From Candidatus Omnitrophota bacterium (GTDB taxonomy: Bacteria > Omnitrophota > Gorgyraeia > Duberdicusellales > 4484-171), in the NCBI GenBank assembly GCA_016935525.1, contig JAFGQU010000016.1, positions 32,342 to 96,341 of the forward strand: DNA of 64,000 nucleotides. The letters run 5' to 3'. Under the pieces are notes generated by a model. The model did not search any database. It was not told where the DNA came from and saw only the letters and a list, made by a program, of their open reading frames with translations. The translations under genes and the position numbers were made by a program. Position 1 is the stretch's first letter, and each line of letters opens with the position of its first letter. Below are positions 1 through 62,255 of the stretch, in pieces.

Positions 1-90
1 CGGGCTTTTCAATACAAACCCTTCCGACGACATCCCGTAGGCGGTAAGTGTAGTTACGAGTAAAACGAGAGTTACGAATATTTGTTTCAT
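1..90 (-). CDS. Partial CDS, N-terminus only; signal-peptide-like start MKQIFVTLVLLVTTLTAYG, gene continues beyond the window edge
   Basis: ATG on the minus strand at 88-90, followed by a hydrophobic signal-like N-terminus; the frame stays open to the window edge. Confidence 0.3.
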   Translation of the reverse strand, partial: MKQIFVTLVLLVTTLTAYGMSSEGFVLKSP

Positions 91-106
91 AGGGGCTCCT
101 TTTTTT

Positions 107-137
107 CGTAACGCGTAACGCGATACGCGTAACGCGT
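107..137 (+). repeat. CGTAACGCG tandem repeats (cgtaacgcgtaacgcgatacgcgtaacgcgtgg)
   Basis: 4 tandem 8-9 nt units between two minus-strand genes. Confidence 0.55.
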
Positions 138-237
138 GGAGAAAAGATATTATAGCATGATAAGGGGAGAGGGTACAGGGTGCCGGGGAAAATTACAATA
201 TACAATAAACAAATTACAAAGGGGGAAGGGATGTTAA

Positions 238-267
238 CCCGTTTGCCCGTTATCCCGTTCGCCCGTG
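238..267 (+). repeat. CCCGTT heptad direct repeats (cccgtttgcccgttatcccgttcgcccgtg)
   Basis: 4 tandem units; same family as 7150-7179. Confidence 0.6.
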
Positions 268-288
268 AGGAAGAAAGGTGAAGGGGAA

Positions 289-525
289 TTAGCTCAATTC
301 AGATATTAGTTTTTTGCCTCTTGGAGAATCTACAGGAACCATGTTGGACGCGCCACATTTGGGGCATGCTTCATAACGAGAAGTTAATCGCCAGAGAGAA
401 TATATAATGCCTGGCACAATAAACATAATCCATAAAGCTAATTCAATAATAAAACTCCCTTTTGTTACAACTTTTGCATGTCCTGAATTACCACAATTTG
501 GACATATCAAATCTTTCGCCATCAT
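289..525 (-). CDS. Small membrane protein with split zinc ribbon (CPNCG ... CPKCG) flanking one TM helix
   Basis: 78 aa ORF; two CxxC pairs; central hydrophobic segment ALWIMFIVPGIIYSLW. Confidence 0.45.
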   Translation of the reverse strand: MMAKDLICPNCGNSGHAKVVTKGSFIIELALWIMFIVPGIIYSLWRLTSRYEACPKCGASNMVPVDSPRGKKLISELS

Positions 526-600
526 TCATCTCCTACATCCATTTTTTCTCTTGTATTTCCTTCTATCATCCGACTTCACCTGTATAAAAACGTAACTTTT

Positions 601-969
601 TTATTCAATAGAAATCTCTAAAGGTTGTACGGGATTTGTTTCTATATATGAGTAATCTTTGACTACGCCGTTATCATCAAAATTAATTGTAAGGCCGTAT
701 GATGATGCCTGATAACTTGAGGTGAAAAGCCCAGATCTATGTTTTGACTTAGCTAACGAATAAGTCCACATTGTTCCTAATATGCCGGTTCGCATTTTTG
801 ACATGGGCTCACCGAACATAGTTAGTATTTCTGCTTGGGTTGTTGCTCCTTTAACGATTTTACTCACATTCTCCGGGATAATGTTTTTATTACCGTAAGT
901 TGTCTTCATCGTACTAGCACACCCACTAATTAAAATTAAGCCGATTATGATTAGATAAAATTGTTTCAT
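601..969 (-). CDS. Lipoprotein, BamE/SmpA-OmlA-like
   Basis: Lipobox LISGC after an N-terminal hydrophobic segment; 122 aa; GATTQAEILTMFGEP resembles the BamE fold motif. Confidence 0.45.
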   Translation of the reverse strand: MKQFYLIIIGLILISGCASTMKTTYGNKNIIPENVSKIVKGATTQAEILTMFGEPMSKMRTGILGTMWTYSLAKSKHRSGLFTSSYQASSYGLTINFDDNGVVKDYSYIETNPVQPLEISIE

Positions 970-1018
970 AAAATCTCCTTTATCACATTAATACCCGCTG
1001 GATTGAGTTGCCTATGAT

Positions 1019-1492
1019 TTATTTAAGTATCCATTTCCCATAAATATTGGGATTTGAAGTTTCACTGCCTCTCGCTTTTGTCTCACGAAAACTCTTTTCT
1101 GCAAAATGGTCTTTCAAGGATATTGTAATTTCAATATCCGCCACAGGGGCTTCTCGTTTTGCCTTTATTGTATTATCGGAGTAATCTATTATCTGATAAA
1201 CAGATCGTTGGTGATAAAGTAGATTCTCTTTTAAGATCGGTTGTTCTTTTGGTGTCCAGATAAAAGATTCAATCTCTTCACATGTCATGTCGTTAGTATC
1301 GCAGGATATAGATGCGAAATTAATTTTAGGAATAATGCCCAGACTGGTAGCCAATATTATTCCCCATCGTCCTTCTGCGAATACCAAATTTCCTTTTTGA
1401 ACTATATTTTTTTCAGGAGTTTCTATTCTATTTATGTCCGAACACCCTGCAAGGAGGATTATGGAAGATATAAGAAATATTATTTTATTCAT
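1019..1492 (-). CDS. Hypothetical lipoprotein
   Basis: Signal peptide plus lipobox LLAGC; 157 aa. Confidence 0.45.
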   Translation of the reverse strand: MNKIIFLISSIILLAGCSDINRIETPEKNIVQKGNLVFAEGRWGIILATSLGIIPKINFASISCDTNDMTCEEIESFIWTPKEQPILKENLLYHQRSVYQIIDYSDNTIKAKREAPVADIEITISLKDHFAEKSFRETKARGSETSNPNIYGKWILK

Positions 1493-1544
1493 TCTAATCG
1501 CTATACGCTATCCCTAGTCCGTTGGATTGAGTTTTTATGGGTTG

Positions 1545-1946
1545 TTAATATCCATAAGGATCATTATCTTCAGTATATCTTGGTGGATTCCAGTGGGGAT
1601 TATCTACAAAATGCACAAATTTGCAATCAGGTGTAGGACATTTATACTCCGTACTGGATACAAGTGTTCTAATTACTAAATGCGTTTTTCTTTTTTTTGA
1701 TCCCCCACAACCAGGACAATAAGGATATTCTTCTCCTTCAATATAATAGAATTTCCCATCAAATTTCATTTTTTGAGAATCATCGAGTTGCTTTTCTAAT
1801 TCTCTTATTTTTTTATCTTTTTCAGTGTTTGAATTCGATAATTCTAATGCTTGAGTTTGTATGTTAAGTATCTTCTGGTAGAGTTCAATATTATCCAGTT
1901 TTTGAACCACTCCAACTACATCTTTGAAATTTTCATATAATCCCAT
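1545..1946 (-). CDS. Hypothetical coiled-coil protein with C-terminal zinc ribbon (CPGCGG ... CPTPDC)
   Basis: 133 aa; Lys/Glu-rich coiled-coil N-half; C4 cysteine cluster; SD-like aagagga sits 6 nt upstream of the ATG. Confidence 0.45.
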   Translation of the reverse strand: MGLYENFKDVVGVVQKLDNIELYQKILNIQTQALELSNSNTEKDKKIRELEKQLDDSQKMKFDGKFYYIEGEEYPYCPGCGGSKKRKTHLVIRTLVSSTEYKCPTPDCKFVHFVDNPHWNPPRYTEDNDPYGY

Positions 1947-1986
1947 AAATCCTCTTTTTCTCTGTATCCCAACGCGTTAGGTGAAC

Positions 1987-2065
1987 TTGTTAGTTTTCAT
2001 CTATGGTCTATGGACTATCGACAGGCTTTCCTAGGCAGGTAATTCCAATTATACCGCTATTTTTA
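1987..2065. repeat. Copy 1 of an ~85-nt conserved intergenic element (ttgttRRttttcatctatggtcta...ccaattataccgctattt)
   Basis: Near-identical to 3099-3180; on the minus strand it carries TTGACT-N22-TATAAT and lies ~40 nt upstream of the 1946 start. Confidence 0.7.
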
Positions 2066-2216
2066 CTATTATCCCAGTCAAAAAACCCCCCTTATTCTAT
2101 TGGCGATTTTTACCATATCACACCTACGAGGTGTGATATTGAGGTTTAACGCCCTCGCAGGTAACCTTCTTGGCAATTCGTAGGTTGCCAAAGAGTTGTA
2201 AAATACCCCTGTTTTT

Positions 2217-2249
2217 ACGTGTGACTATGTGTCTATGTGACCTTGTGAC
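2217..2249 (+). promoter_or_regulatory. TGTGAC octamer tandem array (acgtgtgactatgtgtctatgtgaccttgtgac)
   Basis: Member of a 6-copy motif family in this window, all following ttttacg; this copy lies at the 3' side of the NYN gene. Confidence 0.5.
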
Positions 2250-2290
2250 TTTCGTCTTCGGCGGGGGATTGAGTTGTTAGGTTGAAATTA

Positions 2291-2926
2291 TTACCAGGAA
2301 CTGGGTTTACGAATTTCTTTGCCGTCGGATAGAATTACCGGATCAGGTAATTTATGGCGCAGGTATTGTTTTTTACTTATAGAAAAAGAGCCGGGAGCTA
2401 ATGAGAGTAATTCTTTATTTTTTCGAGCGAACGGAAAAGCGAATAGTATTTTTTTCTTTGGAAATAATTCAGTACACCTTCTCACGGCCGGGGAGAGATC
2501 GGTGTCGCCGGATATAATAACCACGCTATCGCAGGAATCAGTGAAAAGGATTTCTAGTAATTTTACGCCGATCGCGACATCGGTCTCTTTTTCTTCGTGT
2601 TTCAAGATCATACTTTTACATTGATCACAAAACACTTCTTTTTCTTTAAACCGTCCAAGCTCAACCTTGATACCTAACGATTCAAGACAGGTAATGTAAT
2701 TCTTATGTTTTGTGATTTTGCCGGGATCTTTCGCGCTTAAGTAGTGCGCTAACGCTGAAAAATAGTAGATGTCTTGAAGCCGAGCGTCTTTGCCGAATAA
2801 ATTCAGGTATGAGCTGCAGAGTGATGATAGATTAAGCCATTTTGCGCGATAGCCGGTACTCTTTTTCAGGCTTAAAATGGAATGGTAGACATTAAACCCG
2901 TCGATTAAAAATGTTACTCTATTCAT
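2291..2926 (-). CDS. NYN-domain (LabA-like, PIN-like) putative ribonuclease
   Basis: MNRVTFLIDGFNVYHS ... VVIISGDTDLSPAV matches the NYN/LabA signature; I moved the start to the internal ATG at 2926 (the ORF track extends to 2983 through a hairpin). Confidence 0.6.
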   Translation of the reverse strand: MNRVTFLIDGFNVYHSILSLKKSTGYRAKWLNLSSLCSSYLNLFGKDARLQDIYYFSALAHYLSAKDPGKITKHKNYITCLESLGIKVELGRFKEKEVFCDQCKSMILKHEEKETDVAIGVKLLEILFTDSCDSVVIISGDTDLSPAVRRCTELFPKKKILFAFPFARKNKELLSLAPGSFSISKKQYLRHKLPDPVILSDGKEIRKPSSW

Positions 2927-3098
2927 ATAAATAAAAAAACCTCTGGATCGTAACCCAGAGGTGGCTAGTGAGATAAATCCCACTAGGGATGATTACATTT
3001 AAAATATATAACATTTTACCAATATTGTCAATAATCATGATTTTTCCCTAATATACCAATAACTATCGATTTTTTCACGTGTTTCACGTTTCATGAAT

Positions 3099-3180
3099 TT
3101 GTTGATTTTCATCTATGGTCTATTGACTATGGACTATCGACAGGCTTTCCTGGGCAAGTATCCAATTATACCGCTATTTC
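3099..3180. repeat. Copy 2 of the ~85-nt conserved intergenic element
   Basis: About 90% identical to 1987-2065 with a 9-nt insertion; on the minus strand it sits upstream of the NYN gene. Confidence 0.7.
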
Positions 3181-3226
3181 TCTGTCTGGAAAAGTCAAAA
3201 AATCCCCCATTTCCCCCTCTATTTTT

Positions 3227-3260
3227 ACGTGTGACCTTGTGACTATGTGACCTTGTGACC
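3227..3260 (+). promoter_or_regulatory. TGTGAC octamer tandem array (acgtgtgaccttgtgactatgtgaccttgtgacc)
   Basis: Four tandem TGTGACYW units; lies in the divergent intergenic region between NYN (-) and nadX (+). Confidence 0.55.
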
Positions 3261-3340
3261 TGTATTTATAAACTTCTTGCCCAATATCCCTCTTGTAATA
3301 TAATAAGGTTTACAATATATAGTATTATTAACGTATTTCC

Positions 3341-3374
3341 ACGTGTGACGTGTGACCTTGTGACTATGTGACCT
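3341..3374 (+). promoter_or_regulatory. TGTGAC octamer tandem array immediately upstream of the nadX start (ATG 3384)
   Basis: acgtgtgacgtgtgaccttgtgactatgtgacc ends 10 nt before the ATG; no SD is present. Confidence 0.55.
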
Positions 3375-3383
3375 CGAATAATT

Positions 3384-4187
3384 ATGACTAATAAACTAAA
3401 GATTGGGATAATCGGCTGCGGGGCGATCGGCATGAAAACTGCCGAATATATCGTCACGGAACTTCGTGAGAAAACCGAACTGGTCGGCCTGTACGATAAA
3501 GATCCGGATAAACTTTCCGCGTTAAAAAGGATCGCGTCCGGTAAGATCGTGACCGATCTTGACGGTATTTTGAAAGAAGCCGATCTTATTGTGGAAGCGG
3601 CAAGTAAAGAAGCCGTACGTGACCTTATCCCGCGTATCGTTCAATATAATAAAGATCTTATTGTAATAAGTGTCGGCGCGTTTGTCGTGTATCCCGAAAT
3701 CTTAGAGATGACGAAACAATGTAAAGGGAACATCTATGTCCCGTCGGGGGCGATCATCGGGATCGACGGACTGAACAGCCTGCGGTTCGGGAACGTACGG
3801 TCGTTGACCCTTACGACCGCAAAACCTCCGCGATCGCTTAAAGGTGTGAAAACTGCCGACGGAGAAGCGGTCGAATCGGTAAAAGAAGAGAAAGTGTTGT
3901 TTGAAGGGGATATCATGCAGGCAATAAAACTGTTCCCGCGTAACATCAATGTCGCGGCAACGATATTCCTCGCGTCACGGTATGAAAACGTGAAAGTGAT
4001 CGTAAAAGTGAATCCGGCGCTTGAGAGGAACACGCATCGTATCGAGATCGACGCGGAGGAGGCGAAAATGCGGGTTGAAGTCGAGAATATTCCGTCAAAA
4101 GATAATCCGCGGACAAGTTATCTTACGATCCTTTCGATAAAAAGTATTTTACAGCGGATTACGTCGAACCTTAAGATTGGGAGTTAA
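3384..4187 (+). CDS. nadX: L-aspartate dehydrogenase family protein (NadX-like)
   Basis: [10 protein letters not shown] Rossmann motif at the N-terminus; [11 protein letters not shown] ... [12 protein letters not shown] ... [14 protein letters not shown] resembles TM1643-type AspDH. Confidence 0.7.
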
Positions 4188-4192
4188 TAAAA

Positions 4193-4242
4193 GTCACACG
4201 ACACACGCCCGCCTGTCGGCGAGCTAGTCACATAGACACACG
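4193..4242 (-). promoter_or_regulatory. Inverted-orientation copy of the TGTGAC array (gtcacacgacacacg ... gtcacatagacacacg)
   Basis: Reverse complement of the cgtgtgtcgtgtgac / cgtgtgtctatgtgac units; located just 3' of the nadX stop. Confidence 0.45.
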
Positions 4243-4243
4243 T

Positions 4244-4262
4244 AAACCTGCTTCGCAGGTTG
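4244..4262 (+). terminator. Candidate stem-loop (aacctgc-ttc-gcaggtt) after nadX
   Basis: Perfect 7-bp stem with a 3-nt loop; the downstream sequence is only weakly T-rich, so intrinsic-terminator status is uncertain. Confidence 0.3.
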
Positions 4263-4300
4263 ATTACACAACACATTTTAATTGTATTTTCTTTCTCTTC

Positions 4301-4334
4301 ACGTGTGACCTTGTGACTATGTGACCTTGTGACC
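4301..4334 (+). promoter_or_regulatory. TGTGAC octamer tandem array immediately upstream of uvrA
   Basis: acgtgtgaccttgtgactatgtgaccttgtgacc ends 9 nt before the ATG at 4344; no SD; the ORF-track GTG start at 4329 lies inside the motif. Confidence 0.55.
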
Positions 4335-4343
4335 TGTATAACT

Positions 4344-7130
4344 ATGATCGATACCATAAAAATCCAAGGCGCGAAAGAACATAATCTCCAGAACATCAGT
4401 GTAGAGATACCGAAGAACAAACTGGTCGTCGTGACCGGTGTATCGGGTTCAGGGAAATCGTCGCTCGCGTTTGATACCATTTATGCCGAAGGGCAACGCC
4501 GGTATGTCGAAAGTCTGTCCAGTTATGCCCGCCAGTTTCTTGAACAGTTACAGAAACCGCACGTCGATCATATCGAAGGGTTATCGCCGGCAATCGCGAT
4601 AGAACAACGTACTGCCGGCGGCTCGCCACGGTCGATCGTCGCGACCCAGACCGAAATATACGATTACCTGCGTTTATTGTTTGCCCGGATCGGGATACCT
4701 CATTGTTATAGTTGCGGAAAACCCGTCGTCCGGCAGACCTCAAGTGAGATCATCGAACGAGTGTTATCGTTAGGGAAAGACCATCGTATCCATATTTTAG
4801 CGCCGCTGGTACGCGGGAAAAAAGGTACGTACGAATCGTTGTTTGAGCGGCTTGTCAAGGAAGGGTTTCGCCGGGTACGCGTCGATGGGAAGACGTATGA
4901 TCTGGATGAAAAGATAAAACTCGACCGGTACCGGGCCCATACGATCGAGATCGTGATCGACCGGATAATGGTCGCGCCGAAATATAAACAACGTATTGCC
5001 GATTCGGTCGAGATCGCCCTGAAATATACGCAAGGATTGATCGGGATATACGATGAAACCGGGAATAAAGAACATCTGTTTAATACCCAGTTCAGTTGTC
5101 CGGATTGTGATGTAAGTTTCGCGGAACTCGAACCGCGGATGTTTTCGTTTAATTCCCCGTTCGGTGCCTGTCCGGAATGTAACGGGTTAGGGATGCATCT
5201 GGAGTTTGATCCTGAATTAGTCGTGTCCGACACGTCCCGCGCGTTAAGTGAAGGGGCGATCGAACCGTGGCGGCGCGGGTCAAAAGGGTATATGATGTAT
5301 TATCGCAGCCTTCTGCGGGAAGTTGCCGATGCGATCGGAGTCGATTGGGCACGTACGCCGTTTAAAAAAATACCGAAAAAACTGCAAAAAGTCGTCCTGT
5401 ACGGCGATAAGAACCTGTATATCTGGGATAAACCGTATGAAGGAGTGATCCCGCGTCTGGAACGGGTGTTCCGGGAGACCGATTCGGATTATGTGAAACA
5501 CGAACTTACCCAATATATGTCGAAACTCCCGTGCCCGAAGTGTCAGGGGATGCGGTTGAAACCGGAGAGTCTGGCGGTATTTATTGCCGGTAAATCTATC
5601 TGGGATGTCGTGAAGATGAGTATTGCCGAATGTGACGAGTTTTTTACGAACCTGAATTTATCGTCTTACCAACAGAAAATCGCGTATAATGCCCTTAAAG
5701 AGATAAAGAAACGCCTGCAGTTCTGTCTGCGGGTCGGGGTCGATTATCTTACTCTCGATCGGTTGTCTTCGAGCCTGTCCGGAGGAGAATCGCAACGGAT
5801 AAAACTTGCCACGCAAATCGGATCGGCCTTAAGCGGGGTGATCTATATTCTCGATGAACCGACCATAGGGTTACATCCCCGGGATAATACGAAACTGATT
5901 GAAACGCTTAAAAACTTGAGAGATGTCGGGAATACCGTGATCGTCGTCGAACATGACGAAGAGATGATCGAAAGTTCCGATTGGCTGGTAGATCTGGGGC
6001 CCGGCGCGGGTATCCATGGCGGAAAAATCGTGTTTAACGGTCCCAAAGAGAAGATACCGCAGTCTTCACTTACCGGGCAATACCTGCTCGGTAAAAAACA
6101 GATCGCGGTACCCGCCGCACGGCGTCCGGTGCAGAAAGGGATGTCCCTTACCGTACGCGGCGCGTCCGAACATAACCTTAAACATATCGATATCGAAATA
6201 CCGTTAGGCGTGTTTGTGTGTGTGACCGGGGTATCGGGATCAGGTAAATCGACGTTAGTCGAAGATATCCTTTACAAGACTCTTGCCCGTGAGCTTTACG
6301 ATTCGAAAGAGAAACCGGGTGAGTACCGGTCGATCGAAGGGTTAAAGAATATCGATAAAGTGATCATTGTCGATCAGACTCCTATCGGCCGGACACCGCG
6401 GTCGAACCCGGCGACCTATACCGGCGCGTTTACGTATATTCGTGAAGTGTTCAGCCAGTTACCGGAATCTAAAGTACGGGGATATAAACCGGCCCGGTTC
6501 AGTTTTAACGTTTCGGGGGGCAGGTGCGAAGCGTGCCGGGGTGACGGGATAAAAAAGATCGAGATGCATTTTTTACCGGACGTGTACGTACCGTGCGAAG
6601 TGTGCGCGGGGCACCGGTTCAATAATGAGACGCTGGAAATACGGTTTAAAGGGAAAAATATTTCCGATGTACTGGATATGAGTATGGAAGAAGCGTACCG
6701 GTTGTTCGAGAATTTTCCCCGGATACGGAATATCGTCGAAACGCTCAAAGATGTCGGGTTAGGATATATCAAAGTAGGCCAGTCGGCGACTACTCTTTCG
6801 GGCGGTGAAGCGCAACGGATAAAGTTAGCCGCGCAGTTAAGGAAAAAAGGGACCGGTAAGACTATCTATATTCTCGATGAACCGACGACCGGGCTGCATT
6901 TCGATGATACCCGTAAACTCCTTGCGGTACTGCAACGGCTGGTCGATAAAAAAAATACGGTTTTGGTTATCGAGCATAATATGGATGTGGTAAAATGTTG
7001 TGATTATGTGATCGATCTTGGCCCGGGCGGAGGAAATAACGGGGGCGAGGTGGTCGCCGCGGGCAGCCCTGAAGATATCCTGAAAGCCAAGAGGTCGTAT
7101 ACGGGTAAGTTCTTGAAAGAAAAACTGTGA
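4344..7130 (+). CDS. uvrA: Excinuclease ABC subunit A
   Basis: Two ABC ATPase modules ([23 protein letters not shown] and [13 protein letters not shown], each followed by LSGGE signatures) plus zinc-finger cysteine clusters; start set at [15 protein letters not shown]. Confidence 0.93.
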
Positions 7131-7149
7131 TAGAGAAGATACAAGTTCA

Positions 7150-7179
7150 CCCGTTTGCCCGTTACCCCGTTCACCCGTT
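7150..7179 (+). repeat. CCCGTT heptad direct repeats (cccgtttgcccgttaccccgttcacccgtt), followed by cgtaacgcgg
   Basis: 4 tandem CCCGTTNN units in the uvrA-TPR intergenic region; same family as 238-267, 37924-38012 and 39364-39442. Confidence 0.6.
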
Positions 7180-21905: not shown

Positions 21906-22221
21906 TTTACCGTGTACCCGTACATTTTGTTTCTTCTCCAGAATGGTTGAGTTATTTTGAGTATTAGATATAATATACTTTCCCCTTTGAGGGAAGCGTC
22001 GCTCGTGGACAGTATCTGGTGGAGGAAAAGAGACAAAAACTATATACTAGAGACCAGAGACTAGAGACTGAAATTAGCACATAATGGGCCGGTAGTTTCC
22101 CGATATCGCCCGATTTCTAGTAAGCTCATCGGGATCAGCCTGTATAAGAGAATTAAGGTCGCTGACAGTCGGGATTATATCTGTTTTAAGTACAAATGTT
22201 CATTATAGTAGTTATAAAAAT

Positions 22222-22294
22222 GGGCCGGTAGTTCAGTTGGGAGAACACTTCGTTCGCAACGAAGGGGTCGGCAGTTCGAATCTGCTCCGGTCCA
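22222..22294 (+). tRNA. tRNA-Ala (anticodon CGC); CCA not encoded
   Basis: Cloverleaf folded by hand: acceptor gggccgg/ccggtcc with G3:U70, D-stem gttc/gaac, anticodon stem cttcg/cgaag with loop ttCGCaa, T-stem ggcag/ctgct with loop ttcgaat, discriminator A. Confidence 0.85.
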
Positions 22295-22345
22295 TTTTAA
22301 ATAGCGTATAGCGGCTAGCGGATAGCGATTAGTGATAGATTGAAA
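22278..22345 (+). repeat. Direct repeat A: tRNA 3' end (17 nt) plus ~50 nt downstream flank
   Basis: About 90% identical to 22463-22530 (gaatctgctccggtccattttaaatagcgtatagcggctagcg...attgaaaa). Confidence 0.7.
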
Positions 22346-22462
22346 AGAGAGTAAGAAGAGAGAGGGCAGATGAGGACTTCGCAGCGAGAGCTGCGATGGA
22401 GGTCGCGAAAGCGCGCGAAGCGCGCTGGAGTCCATAGGGATTGCGTGCAATCCCGGTCATGG

Positions 22463-22530
22463 GAATCTGCTCCGGTCCATTTTAAATAGCGTATAGCGGC
22501 TAGCGATTAGCGGTTAGTGATAAATTGAAA
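22463..22530 (+). repeat. Direct repeat B: duplicated tRNA 3' fragment plus flank, attR-like
   Basis: The exact 17-mer gaatctgctccggtcca is present without the 5' half of the tRNA. Confidence 0.7.
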
Positions 22531-26424: not shown

Positions 26425-26606
26425 CGGTGAGAGGATAGAGTGAAGAGAATTAGCAATGTCCAATTAGCAATTATCAGTTAGCAATGAGAGAAAGAATAGG
26501 GAGAGAAACTCCGGATTTTAAATTGCTAATTGCTAAATGCTAATTTTGCATTGATCATTTATATTAAACGTGTGATCGGCTTGTTTTCACCTGCGCGGCG
26601 GAGGTA

Positions 26607-27884
26607 ATGAAGAATATGATGAGAGAGAATAAGGCAAAATTGAAGGTAAAGTTTGTGACGCTCGGGTGTAAAGTGAACCAGTATGAGACTCAAGTGTTAC
26701 GGGAGGATTGCGCGCGTCACGGGATGGATGTGACCGAAGAGGCCGCCGATATCTATGTGATCAATACCTGTAGCGTTACCCATCGTGCCGATCGTAAGTC
26801 GCGGGATGCGATTGTACAGGCCCGGCGGGAAAATCCGAACAGTAAGATCGCCGCGGTCGGATGTCTGGCCGAACTGAACCGGGATATGCTCAAACGATTG
26901 GATGTTGAGTATATCCTCGGCCAACATGAAAAATATTCGTTAGGTAACGTGTTGGCCGGAGGCGAGATAAGCGAGATGTCGCCCTGGTCGTTTTCGGTAA
27001 CCTCAAGTGGTAATCACCGGGCGTTTGTAAAGGTCCAGGACGGGTGTGATAATCTTTGTTCGTTCTGTAAAATACCTCATTTGCGCGGCCGGTCACGAAG
27101 CCGGCCGATAGATGATATCATCGCCGAGATCGAACGGATAGAAGAGGATCATCACGAGATCGTTCTCTGCGGAGTCAATCTCAGCCTTTACGGGAAAGAT
27201 CTCTCGCCGGCACAGGACCTGTCGGGTCTGGTCGCTTGTTGTCTGGAAAGAAAGAGGCTCGGCCGGTTGAGGATAAGTTCTCTGGAATCGTTATACCTGG
27301 ATGAATCGTTATTACGGGTTTTGATTCACCCGCGGTTTTGTCCGCATCTTCATCTTTGTTTTCAAAGCGGCGATGACCGGGTCTTACGCGCGATGAATAA
27401 AAAGGAAACAGTTTCCCAGTACCGCGATCTTATCGCTCGAGCGAGAAAAGTAAACCCTGATGTAGCGATCAGCGGCGATATTATCGTAGGCTTTCCCGAA
27501 GAAGACGAAAAAAGTTTTAAAAATACTTTTGATTTCCTTAAGGAGATCAAACCCATGCGGCTGCATATATTTCGTTTCTCGCCGCGGGAAAAAACCGTCT
27601 TTGCCGGAATGCGTCCGGGTAACGGGAAAAAGATAAAAATCCGGTATACGGTATTAAAGGCCGCAGCCCAGAGGTGGTCTTTAGAATATAGCCGCCGGTT
27701 CGAAAACCGTCGGGTAGATGTTATTACCGAAGGGAAAAACGGCGACTATTTTTACGGGTATTCTCAGCATTATGTGCGGGTGCATTTTACCGGTGATGCC
27801 CGGTTAGGTGAAATTACCAAAGTAAAAGTTACCCAGATAAATCAGAAAGGCGTATTCGGGGAATCAATTAAGGAAAAATCCTAA
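26607..27884 (+). CDS. mtaB: Radical-SAM methylthiotransferase, MtaB-like (MiaB/RimO family)
   Basis: MTTase N-domain TLGCKVNQYETQ; radical SAM motif CDNLCSFCKIP; C-terminal TRAM-like domain. Confidence 0.8.
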   Translation: MKNMMRENKAKLKVKFVTLGCKVNQYETQVLREDCARHGMDVTEEAADIYVINTCSVTHRADRKSRDAIVQARRENPNSKIAAVGCLAELNRDMLKRLDVEYILGQHEKYSLGNVLAGGEISEMSPWSFSVTSSGNHRAFVKVQDGCDNLCSFCKIPHLRGRSRSRPIDDIIAEIERIEEDHHEIVLCGVNLSLYGKDLSPAQDLSGLVACCLERKRLGRLRISSLESLYLDESLLRVLIHPRFCPHLHLCFQSGDDRVLRAMNKKETVSQYRDLIARARKVNPDVAISGDIIVGFPEEDEKSFKNTFDFLKEIKPMRLHIFRFSPREKTVFAGMRPGNGKKIKIRYTVLKAAAQRWSLEYSRRFENRRVDVITEGKNGDYFYGYSQHYVRVHFTGDARLGEITKVKVTQINQKGVFGESIKEKS

Positions 27885-27996
27885 ACTCTAAGCACTAAAT
27901 TCTAAACAAATCCAAAGCTCTAAATTCAAAACAGGTATTCGTTCTCAAAATTAGGATTTAGGATTTGTTTTGGATTTAGAATTTAGGGTTTTTAAT

Positions 27997-28027
27997 CGTG
28001 TGACGTGTGACTATGTGTCGTGTGACT
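27997..28027 (+). promoter_or_regulatory. TGTGAC octamer tandem array immediately upstream of rluB
   Basis: cgtgtgacgtgtgactatgtgtcgtgtgac ends 5 nt before the ATG at 28033; no SD. Confidence 0.55.
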
Positions 28028-28032
28028 TGAAT

Positions 28033-28731
28033 ATGCGTTTAAACAAGTATATTGCCCAAAGCGGAGTGTGTTCCCGGCGGCACGCTGATGAACTTATCGG
28101 CGAAGGCCGGGTGAAAGTGAACGGTGAAGTCGTCCGTACGCCGGGGATACAGGTGGTTCCCGGTGATCAGGTGAGCGTGGACCATCAGCCGTTACGGGCT
28201 TCCGAGCTGGTGTATGTGATTATGAATAAACCGGCAGGCGTGACTTCCACGGTAGAGGATCCTTTTGCCCAAAAAAAGATCGTGGATATGGTCCCGTCCC
28301 GACTGGGGAGGCTTTATCCGGTCGGCCGGCTCGATAAAGATTCACGCGGCCTGATCATTTTGACCAACGATGGCGATTTATGCCAGAAGTTGACTCATCC
28401 CCGGTTTGAGATAGAGAAAGAATATGTGGTGTTAGCCGATGGCCGAGTCCCGCAAAGCGCGTGTCTACGGTTCAAACGGGGAATAAAAGACCAGGGAGAA
28501 TTATTGAAAGTGACTTCGGTGAGGATACAGGGATACCGGGGAGATCAAACCGTATTACAGGTGATCGTGAAAGAAGGGAAAAAAAGGCATCTGCGCCGGC
28601 TGTTCGCTTATGTGGGCTATCCTGTCCGCGATTTGAAAAGGGTACGTATCGGGAATATCCGGCTGGGTAATCTGGCTGAAGGGGAATTCAAAATAGTCGA
28701 CAAAAAAATAATATACGGGCTTATCCGGTAA
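28033..28731 (+). CDS. rluB: rRNA pseudouridine synthase, RsuA/RluB family (S4 domain plus PseudoU_synth_2)
   Basis: MRLNKYIAQSGVCSRRHADELIGEGRVKVNG (S4 domain); GRLDKDSRGLIILTNDG catalytic Asp motif; start moved from the ORF-track TTG at 27970. Confidence 0.8.
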   Translation: MRLNKYIAQSGVCSRRHADELIGEGRVKVNGEVVRTPGIQVVPGDQVSVDHQPLRASELVYVIMNKPAGVTSTVEDPFAQKKIVDMVPSRLGRLYPVGRLDKDSRGLIILTNDGDLCQKLTHPRFEIEKEYVVLADGRVPQSACLRFKRGIKDQGELLKVTSVRIQGYRGDQTVLQVIVKEGKKRHLRRLFAYVGYPVRDLKRVRIGNIRLGNLAEGEFKIVDKKIIYGLIR

Positions 28732-36890: not shown

Positions 36891-37013
36891 GATACATAAT
36901 CCTCAGAATCGAGCGTAGAGTGTGTAGTGATGAGTAGTAATAGGGAAACCAGAAATTTCTTAAAAAATGGATTATCCGCTCACCGCTATCCGCTCACCGC
37001 TTGGAGTTAACCG

Positions 37014-37904: not shown

Positions 37905-37923
37905 GGGGAGAGAATGAAGGTTA

Positions 37924-38012
37924 GCCCGTTGACCCGTTTGCCCGTTCAACCCGTTCTAAAAACGGGATAACGGGAATCCCCCTGTGGCGGGAAACGCGAG
38001 CACGGGCGAACC
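37924..38012 (+). repeat. Bipartite CCCGTT-heptad / AACGGG inverted-repeat element with conserved tail (aatcccNctgNggcgggaaacgcg), copy upstream of the cca gene
   Basis: cccgttgacccgtttgcccgttcaacccgtt-ctaaaa-acgggataacggg forms a long imperfect hairpin, followed by a second small hairpin. Confidence 0.6.
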
Positions 38013-49169: not shown

Positions 49170-49259
49170 TAAATAGTCGCTGGTCGCTAGTCTCTAGTAT
49201 TTAGTGAAAAATGAAATAAAATACCAGAAACCAGAGACCGTAGACTGGAGATTTTAAAA

Positions 49260-62128: not shown

Positions 62129-62255
62129 CATTTCCCTGTTTCTATGTATTTTTTCCGGAGAAAACAGGTATTGCTGCGGGATATAGTCTATGGTAAAATT
62201 AACCGCTATAAAGTAGTAGTAATGCCGATTCAACACTTTATAAAGGGAAAGCGTT

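Follow-up and report, generated by a model that had tools for sequence, protein, structure and literature searches.

Highly similar promoter regions upstream of unrelated genes have been described as reused or 'putative mobile' promoters (PMC3575422). Integrons as well as attC-site clusters without an integron-integrase (CALIN) are defined by at least two attC sites, i.e., imperfect palindromes closed by RYYYAAC...GTTRRRY (PMC4889954), and experiments have shown that resident promoters nearby can drive the expression of cassettes landing outside att sites (bioRxiv 10.1101/2022.09.11.507474). Repeated intergenic DNA that is short and non-coding is further known as miniature inverted-repeat transposable elements (MITEs) and as repetitive extragenic palindromic sequences or bacterial interspersed mosaic elements (REP/BIME; PMC2817692). 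The present analysis concerns a stretch of 64,000 nucleotides from Candidatus Omnitrophota bacterium (GCA_016935525.1, contig JAFGQU010000016.1, positions 32,342–96,341), which is termed the window in its full length. Reading of both strands of positions 1–5000 together with a repeat finder revealed two direct non-coding copies of an element, termed E, with cores at 1975–2091 and 3087–3208, ~1.1 kb apart. On balance, E appears to be a leftward promoter plus the first part of a leader at the border of a variable, cassette-like gene island, duplicated directly around a self-contained module with an NYN-domain gene.

Aligned over 1987–2065 and 3099–3180, the two copies display 70 matches, 5 mismatches and 11 gap columns, corresponding to 93 % identity without indels (81 % across all columns) and bearing out the two-copy repeat of ~90 % identity described in the original prediction. 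The extended alignment (1975–2091 versus 3087–3208) yields 90 % identity without gaps. The copies differ by a 7-nt and a 2-nt indel, with one additional heptamer in copy 2 and an additional AT dinucleotide in copy 1, and the 13 nt between TTGACT and AAATAGCGG are wholly unlike. On the minus strand, each copy reads GGGGGRTTTTTTGACT, 22 nt and TATAAT (TTGACT at 2081–2076 and 3198–3193, TATAAT at 2053–2048 and 3170–3165, read directly), as predicted, and then an array of 3–4 heptamers that had been overlooked. In detail, copy 1 consists of GGGGGGTTTTTTGACT, the 13-nt variable stretch, the core AAATAGCGGTATAATTG (2046–2062), TTACCTGCCTAGG, a small CAGG/CCUG-type hairpin, three heptamers (2001–2021; TCGATAG TCCATAG ACCATAG) and ATGAAAACTAACAAGTTCA, and leads to a coiled-coil/Zn-ribbon gene. 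Copy 2 has the same layout (core at 3163–3179) with four heptamers (3113–3140; TCGATAG TCCATAG TCAATAG ACCATAG; units CTATGGT/CTATTGA/CTATGGA/CTATCGA on the opposite strand) and lies upstream of the promoter belonging to the NYN module.

On the plus strand, both copies are followed by AGTCAAAAAAYCCCCC and, farther on, by TTTTTACGTGTGAC arrays, in agreement with the proposal that a gtcaaaaaaYcccc-type stretch and an array extend the repeated module. In copy 2 the array starts ~20 nt past the G/C run, and in copy 1 ~125 nt later, with an intervening stretch termed block H (2092–2217, ~125 nt). Block H, which is missing from copy 2, contains two minus-strand hairpins, TTGGCAA..TTGCCAA and ATATCACACCT..AGGTGTGATAT. 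The upstream ends of the two repeat units are formed by octamer arrays of four TGTGACNN units each, A1 (2218–2255) and A2 (3228–3265); A2 is identical (38/38) to the array before uvrA (4301–4338). Hence a unit of array, block H (copy 1 only) and E is present twice as direct repeat, with the 0.8-kb NYN module in between. Copy 1 is reproduced in an independent Logan contig (L001), which breaks inside A1.

A 19-mer of the E core occurs exactly twice in the window (0.01 occurrences expected from shuffles), and no further copy of E was found in the window plus 5.3 kb of flanking DNA of the same genome. With up to 3 mismatches allowed, a 39-mer of copy 1 finds nothing but copy 1 itself, due to an indel. 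Exact 17–18-mers of the core produced chance matches alone in 185,579 species genomes, JGI metagenomes and IMG/VR. In particular, a GGAAAGCCTGTCGATAGT scan of species-genome contigs retrieved 12 unrelated single matches, the source metagenome-assembled genome (MAG) evidently not being a species representative there; a AATAGCGGTATAATTGGA scan of metagenome contigs retrieved 8 matches with unrelated flanks, the pattern being blind to copies that read ...TAATTGTC, as in the relative described below; and a 17-mer scan of viral contigs retrieved 1 match. At 62178–62215 (minus strand), an intergenic CTTTATAGCGGTTAATTTTACCATAGAC on the strand opposite to the local genes resembles a compacted E (ATAGCGGT.AATT followed by ACCATAGAC). 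Small plus-strand open reading frames (ORFs) of 48 and 49 amino acids across the two copies were rejected as genes, since the 7-nt and 2-nt indels shift the frame of their middle parts.

A relative (GCA_964483625.1, L037) shares the order aspDH-uvrA-TPR-ExbB/D with the window (aspDH, the aspartate dehydrogenase gene, 81 % identical at the amino acid level) and carries a single E core at the orthologous place, pointing away from aspDH and reading GAAATAGCGGTATAATTGTCTACTTGCCCAGAGAACCCCGTCGA on the minus strand. The 17-mer AAATAGCGGTATAATTG is identical in copy 1, copy 2 and L037, and 38 of 45 positions match overall. As neutral yardsticks between window and L037, aspDH is 57 % identical at third codon positions (78 % over the full coding sequence) and the adjacent block H ~40 %. 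The E core is therefore under purifying selection, as 17/17 and 38/45 matches exceed the values for third codon positions and block H. The conserved block spans about -22 to +20, and nothing past ~+25 is kept; TTGACT and the G/T run are likewise not kept. Downstream of the core, L037 contains different heptamers (TCGAGCG TCGTACG TCGTTTC), a ~165-nt leader and an unrelated gene for a protein of 182 amino acids.

The order in L037, i.e., aspDH promoter, TGTGAC array, hairpin block H, E and first cargo gene, is regarded as ancestral. Block H is ancestral rather than an insertion, since it also stands beside the array in L037 and, nearly identical, in L039, and it has been lost from copy 2. Copy 2, in turn, retains ancestral point states (TACTTGCCCAG), so that both copies are mosaics derived from a single ancestral unit.

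The part of E that matters functionally would be a perfect -10 box with its conserved flanks, AAATAGCGGTATAATTG-N2-4-TACYTGCCYAG. Copy 1, copy 2 and L037 all have TATAAT on the minus strand, in correct orientation and ~95–165 nt upstream of the first leftward gene in window and L037, with no promoter nearer to that gene. Transcription would begin ~7 nt past TATAAT, cross the heptamer array and enter the adjoining cargo gene. Copy 1 is followed by a Shine-Dalgarno (SD) sequence AAGAGGA and the ATG at 1946 without any other promoter-like site between, and would thus continue to provide a promoter for the Zn-ribbon gene as well as for those that follow. Since the core in L037 faces a different array, a different leader and an unrelated gene, E may be a resident promoter serving exchangeable cargo. 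The layout of -10 box, heptamer array, SD sequence and ATG recurs at 90–160, before a gene of the penicillin-binding protein (PBP) family at the left end of the window.

Several observations weigh against this interpretation, in which both activity and direction of the promoter are deduced from sequence. E contains neither a TTGACA-like hexamer at 16–18 nt from the -10 box nor an extended -10 motif (TGn), the preceding bases being CGG (G at -14, no TG), and TTGACT is placed at 22 nt, a spacing that is not functional. The original prediction had rightly urged caution about this spacer: TTGACT is not kept in L037, and a consensus promoter scan accepts copy 2 alone, by way of another, weak -35 hexamer (TTTCCA at 16 nt), leaving copy 1 and L037 uncalled. 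Since an acceptable -35 hexamer is absent from the latter two, activity of the predicted promoter would have to come from the -10 box together with its conserved flanks, or depend on an activator. Alternatively, the core could be conserved as a binding site for a protein. E is known from three sequences (copy 1, copy 2 and L037), which leave the critical positions poorly defined. In addition, a leftward promoter-like TGGAAA-16-TATATT is located in the aspDH promoter region (3341–3314, minus strand) and conserved in L037 (2362–2389); this site could give rise to a long leftward leader through A2 and copy 2. A sigma-54 reading of TGGA..TGCC was rejected by inspection, the spacing differing between the copies and GG missing in L037.

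The situation is different for copy 2, which precedes the NYN module (2256–3063, minus strand). This self-contained module comprises the boundary GTTATTGG (3063–3056), a promoter, a leader, the coding sequence and a 35-nt 3' flank with AACCTAAC-AACTCAATCC, and has homologues in other contexts. The gene (2291–2926, minus strand, 211 amino acids) belongs to Pfam NYN and is HEC-09-like by its PADLOC match (1.8e-48); in the only published assay, HEC-09 conferred no protection against any phage tested (bioRxiv 10.1101/2024.01.29.577857). Its promoter, TTGACA-17-TATATT (3003–3031), was recognized by the promoter scan and is conserved in L002–L008 and L043. The leader (2932–2986) forms hairpin 1 (2986–2965) and hairpin 2 (2962–2939) followed by U7, a terminator-like arrangement, with the AUG at 2926 standing a few nt past the U-run and lacking an SD site. 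Its fold is well below that of shuffled sequences (z = -4.67) and is backed by two compensatory pairs; it matches no Rfam family. NYN homologues of 81–87 % identity in four contexts (L002–L006, L007, L008 and L043) resemble the window upstream only in the last ~125 nt before the ATG. Promoter and leader are conserved there without E, which is absent from 7 NYN loci; the leader is also present in L041 and is retained by a 48 %-identical homologue on a viral contig, the only contig recovered in a scan of viral contigs for this leader. With a promoter, then a small structured RNA, a terminator and an RNase gene, the layout is reminiscent of type III toxin-antitoxin loci, from which the NYN locus differs by the absence of tandem repeats.

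Since the NYN gene possesses a promoter and a conserved two-hairpin leader of its own, copy 2 is not its leader. The conserved leader originally proposed to run into both start codons holds in part: the conserved stretch stops at ~1975, i.e., 29 nt from the ATG at 1946, but at ~3087, i.e., 161 nt from the ATG at 2926, and the final ~105 nt before the latter are the promoter and leader kept in other genomes without E. Copy 2 would be stranded ~130 nt upstream of the NYN promoter and would contribute at most read-through that meets the terminator-like leader hairpin. It is probably redundant, because the module brings its own promoter and such read-through would be stopped by the leader. Thus, a duplicated promoter plus 5'-UTR module, the best fit of the three options originally offered, applies to copy 1 and the locus as a whole, and not to the NYN gene with its TTGACA-17-TATATT promoter.

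The coiled-coil/Zn-ribbon gene downstream of copy 1 (1545–1946, minus strand) codes for 133 amino acids, and a putative cassette-type boundary, CACCTAAC-GC-GTTGGGA (1983–1967), stands at the end of copy 1. E is absent upstream of its homologues (60–83 % identity) at 7 loci (L009–L015). As homologues of both flanking genes occur elsewhere without E, the element belongs to the locus rather than to either gene. Genes left of ~2926 are small, leftward and of lower GC content (36–41 % versus 44–49 %), whereas from 3384 on nearly all genes are rightward (aspDH, uvrA, later the dcw cluster). The borders of this island are conserved, with positions 190–261 corresponding to L037 665–736 at 94 % and positions 3137–3402 to L037 2076–2450 (intergenic border blocks 91–94 %). 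Between them, five small leftward genes in the window contrast with two unrelated genes in L037 (1–2450); the island cargo of the window (1–3400) comprises a Zn-ribbon membrane protein, a BamE-like protein, a lipoprotein, the Zn-ribbon protein and the NYN protein.

The likeliest route to the duplication around the NYN module would be recombination at the TGTGAC arrays, by unequal exchange or by uptake of a circle with E, NYN and array; copy 2 would afterwards have lost block H. Like the reused or 'putative mobile' promoters (PMC3575422), E represents near-identical promoter-bearing intergenic DNA ahead of two non-homologous genes in one genome. It differs in that there are two copies, 1.1 kb apart and arranged as direct repeat around one inserted gene, and in that copy 2 is not the proximal promoter. 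The duplication looks like local rearrangement rather than propagation.

Both genes next to E have close relatives among integron cassettes. In L009, the gene closest to a divergent integron integrase (TIGR02249, 424 bits against a threshold of 265) is an 83 %-identical Zn-ribbon homologue, and the NYN homologues in L002 and L008 possess complementary cassette ends (GTTAGCTT...AAGCTAAC and GTTATCTT...AAGATAAC). The sites in L008 and L007 fold as AAC/GTT-closed, attC-like hairpins (z = -3.7 and -10.2), and the first cargo gene of L037 ends in a foldable attC-like hairpin as well (z = -2.9). In L037, the leader ends in ATATTAATT|GTTAGAT, which agrees with the integrase-proximal junction found in L009 and L010 (CTATTAATT|GTTATAG), being 12/13 identical to CTATTAATTGTTA, whereas copy 1 of the window aligns only loosely to it. 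Three copies of the 10-mer AACTCAATCC (minus strand; 2266–2275, 1524–1533 and 1000–1009) lie 10–25 nt past the stop codons of three consecutive genes in the window. The same 10-mer follows the Zn-ribbon homologue in L013, ends the first cargo gene of L037 and, in L013, L010 and L008, makes up the left arm of attC-like sites.

The three sites of the window lack the right arm and show no attC fold (z = 0.1, 0.2 and 1.5; manual folding test), and no intact attC site was found in the island by folding. An attC scanner written for this analysis (HAAC...GTTD combined with arm duplex energy) recovered known sites along with dozens of matches in ordinary genes; being non-specific, it was replaced by folding of candidates. 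A tblastn search with the L009 integrase revealed no integron integrase adjoining the island: the sole tyrosine recombinase is Xer-like (27 % identity; 37.0–37.9 kb), and the divergent neighbour is aspDH. Since the AACTCAATCC sites do not fold and no integrase adjoins the island, the locus qualifies neither as integron nor as CALIN under the definitions of IntegronFinder (PMC4889954), and is at most a decayed cassette row. With the integron platform (Pc plus attI), CALIN and single attC sites lacking integron-integrases (SALIN), it shares a fixed outward promoter heading a row of small, exchangeable genes that point one way and mostly have no promoter, two genes with cassette homologues and, in L037, a junction matching an integrase-proximal site. 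It differs in the lack of an adjacent intI and of foldable attC sites, in the duplication of E, in the promoter brought by the NYN module and in aspDH taking the place of intI. In other genomes, the Zn-ribbon gene is a single insertion between 5S rRNA and greA (L010–L012, 1–880), and the NYN gene one between an aminotransferase gene and the apparent start of a DNA polymerase III alpha gene (L043, 2140–2960). These single insertions in housekeeping contexts are consistent with cassette insertion outside integrons.

One may go further and regard E as the attI-type recombination platform, including a Pc-like promoter, of an integron-like locus whose integrase was lost or never stood nearby, with the heptamers as integrase-binding repeats, ..CTAAC-N-GTTGGGA as crossover and the duplication resulting from integrase recombination. 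The cassette homologues of both cargo genes, the CTATTAATT|GTTA junction and AAC...GTT hairpin in L037, and the AACTCAATCC arms past three consecutive genes agree with this, as does the end of copy 1, where CACCTAAC-GC-GTTGGGA represents an imperfect inverted AAC/GTT pair at the position at which the Zn-ribbon cassettes of L009, L010 and L013 have GTTRRRY. We nevertheless consider it unlikely, given the missing integrase (with only the Xer-like gene at 37 kb), the unfolded window sites, the weak resemblance of the window junction to the L009 site and heptamers wholly different from those of L037. Moreover, recombination between attI and attC leaves the platform unduplicated. Doubtful, too, is the view that the repeat is a mere scar of segmental duplication or recombination, its core being an operator or another protein-binding site (e.g., for a divergent aspDH regulator) and copy 2 functionless. 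The missing canonical -35 hexamer in copy 1 and L037 would be accounted for, as would a conserved block wider than a -10 box and the position of copy 2, without block H and ahead of a gene with its own promoter; in addition, conservation of the intergenic array regions near aspDH generally exceeds that of coding DNA (91 % versus 78 %). Against this view, a perfect TATAAT in the right orientation precedes the first leftward gene in both genomes with no other promoter closer, and the core is ~220 nt away from the aspDH start, beyond the predicted aspDH promoter (3277–3304).

The further options of the original prediction, a small or cis-regulatory RNA and a MITE, fared less well. A minus-strand small RNA or structured, riboswitch-like leader could explain the ~75–80 nt conserved between the copies past the -10 box and the small CAGG-AAAG-CCUG hairpin with a U-G/C-G difference between them. 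This is improbable: E has no Rfam 15 match at gathering threshold or at E<=10, the structure prediction that had been suggested for the minus strand disclosed no stable fold (z = +1.23 and -0.37; plus strand +0.80 and -2.13, folds not shared), no terminator follows copy 1, and the hairpin is lost in L037 along with all else past ~+25. The likeness of the copies reflects recent duplication rather than deep conservation. A MITE-, REP- or BIME-like multicopy mobile repeat is very improbable, even though E is short, non-coding, repeated and intergenic, the genome is rich in short intergenic repeats, the multi-copy TGTGAC arrays break an independent assembly and a weak E-like string is present at 62178–62215. 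The repeat finder detected no terminal inverted repeats bounding the copies, whose flanks differ without a duplicated target, and E contains no palindromic unit; in ~69 kb (64 kb plus 5.3 kb) there are just two copies, which are directly oriented and separated by 1.1 kb, the database matches are chance ones, and the L037 copy is positionally orthologous. Still more remote is a replication origin with iterons or DnaA-box arrays at the strand switch. Gene orientation does switch at 2926/3384 and the GC skew changes sign near 2 kb, but DnaA boxes do not cluster in the window (the nearest one with 1 mismatch is within a gene, at 1600), the same kinds of array occur in intergenic regions throughout the window, and the left 3.4 kb are a low-GC accessory island with different content in L037. 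In the absence of a DnaA-box cluster, the strand switch is an island border rather than a demonstrable origin. The leftward promoter with the first part of a leader is retained as the preferred interpretation of E.

The heptamers of E belong to a wider population of short tandem arrays. The STRR (short tandemly repeated repetitive) heptamers of cyanobacteria are intergenic heptamer direct repeats. The closest described analogue of the arrays in the window are the TAACTGA heptamer repeats of Beggiatoaceae, Cyanobacteria and Bacteroidetes (PMC4679880), with which they share tandem direct units of 7–8 nt in 2–6 copies (E has 3 and 4) and an almost exclusively intergenic location: 23 of the 25 period-7/8 arrays are outside long ORFs, although just 13 % of the window is. 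A further likeness is that aspDH, uvrA and the gene at 28033, all three without SD sequence, have TGTGAC arrays stopping 6–10 nt short of their start codons; among these arrays is A3 (3341–3374, plus strand) in the 5' region of aspDH, which belongs to the same family, lies outside the duplication and ends 10 nt before the ATG at 3384. Several arrays of the window end 6–17 nt before SD-less start codons. Unlike the TAACTGA repeats, the arrays of the window vary in their units (TGTGACNN, CGTAACG, CCCGTTNN, ATAGCGG, NNNATAG and others) and often form inverted pairs across intergenic regions, and the heptamer array of E is 54 nt away from the ATG at 1946, which has the SD sequence AAGAGGA. The aspDH-proximal arrays are 91 % conserved in L037, above the neutral level.

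Dozens of arrays are present in the whole window, e.g., at 107–137, 233–266, 3341–3374, 4301–4339, 7145–7179, 22301–22327, 26448–26545, 27881–28027, 36973–37001, 37920–37955 and 49174–49250. Between aspDH and uvrA (4188–4343), an inverted GTCACA array (4192–4250) past the aspDH stop codon can pair with the TGTGAC array before uvrA (4301–4339), enclosing a small GC hairpin; this inverted arrangement is conserved in L037 and L038. A tRNA-Ala gene (22221–22295) is followed by an ATAGCG array (region 22221–22530), and the last ~20 nt of the gene plus the array (GAATCTGCTCCGGTCCATTTTAAATAGCGTATAGCGGCTAGCG) are repeated ~195 nt downstream, with a GC-rich structured stretch in between. This repeat could be a remnant integration site or a tRNA-like element.

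Taken by itself, the repeat is genuine but rather ordinary: at a cassette-type island, a promoter-bearing segment has been duplicated locally, which represents a known kind, useful for MAG annotation and not surprising; the 7–8-nt arrays and the conserved leader of the NYN/HEC-09 gene are more notable features. Quite tentatively, one may speculate that E with its heptamers, the AAC...GTT end and the TGTGAC array together form the platform for recombination and expression of an undescribed, integrase-less, integron-like locus of Omnitrophota beside a housekeeping gene, the direct duplication around the NYN module reflecting cassette capture via the arrays or a trans-acting integrase, and the arrays constituting a new class of UTR or intergenic elements that replace SD sequences and double as recombination substrates. 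As the duplication shows, rearrangement boundaries coincide exactly with the abundant short tandem arrays of this genome, which often take the place of SD sequences. In an uncultured phylum, E marks the conserved edge of a hypervariable island, at which a resident promoter appears to serve exchangeable cargo that elsewhere occurs as integron cassettes, including a candidate defence nuclease. The expression and retention of cassettes away from an integrase thereby becomes a directly testable question in Omnitrophota.

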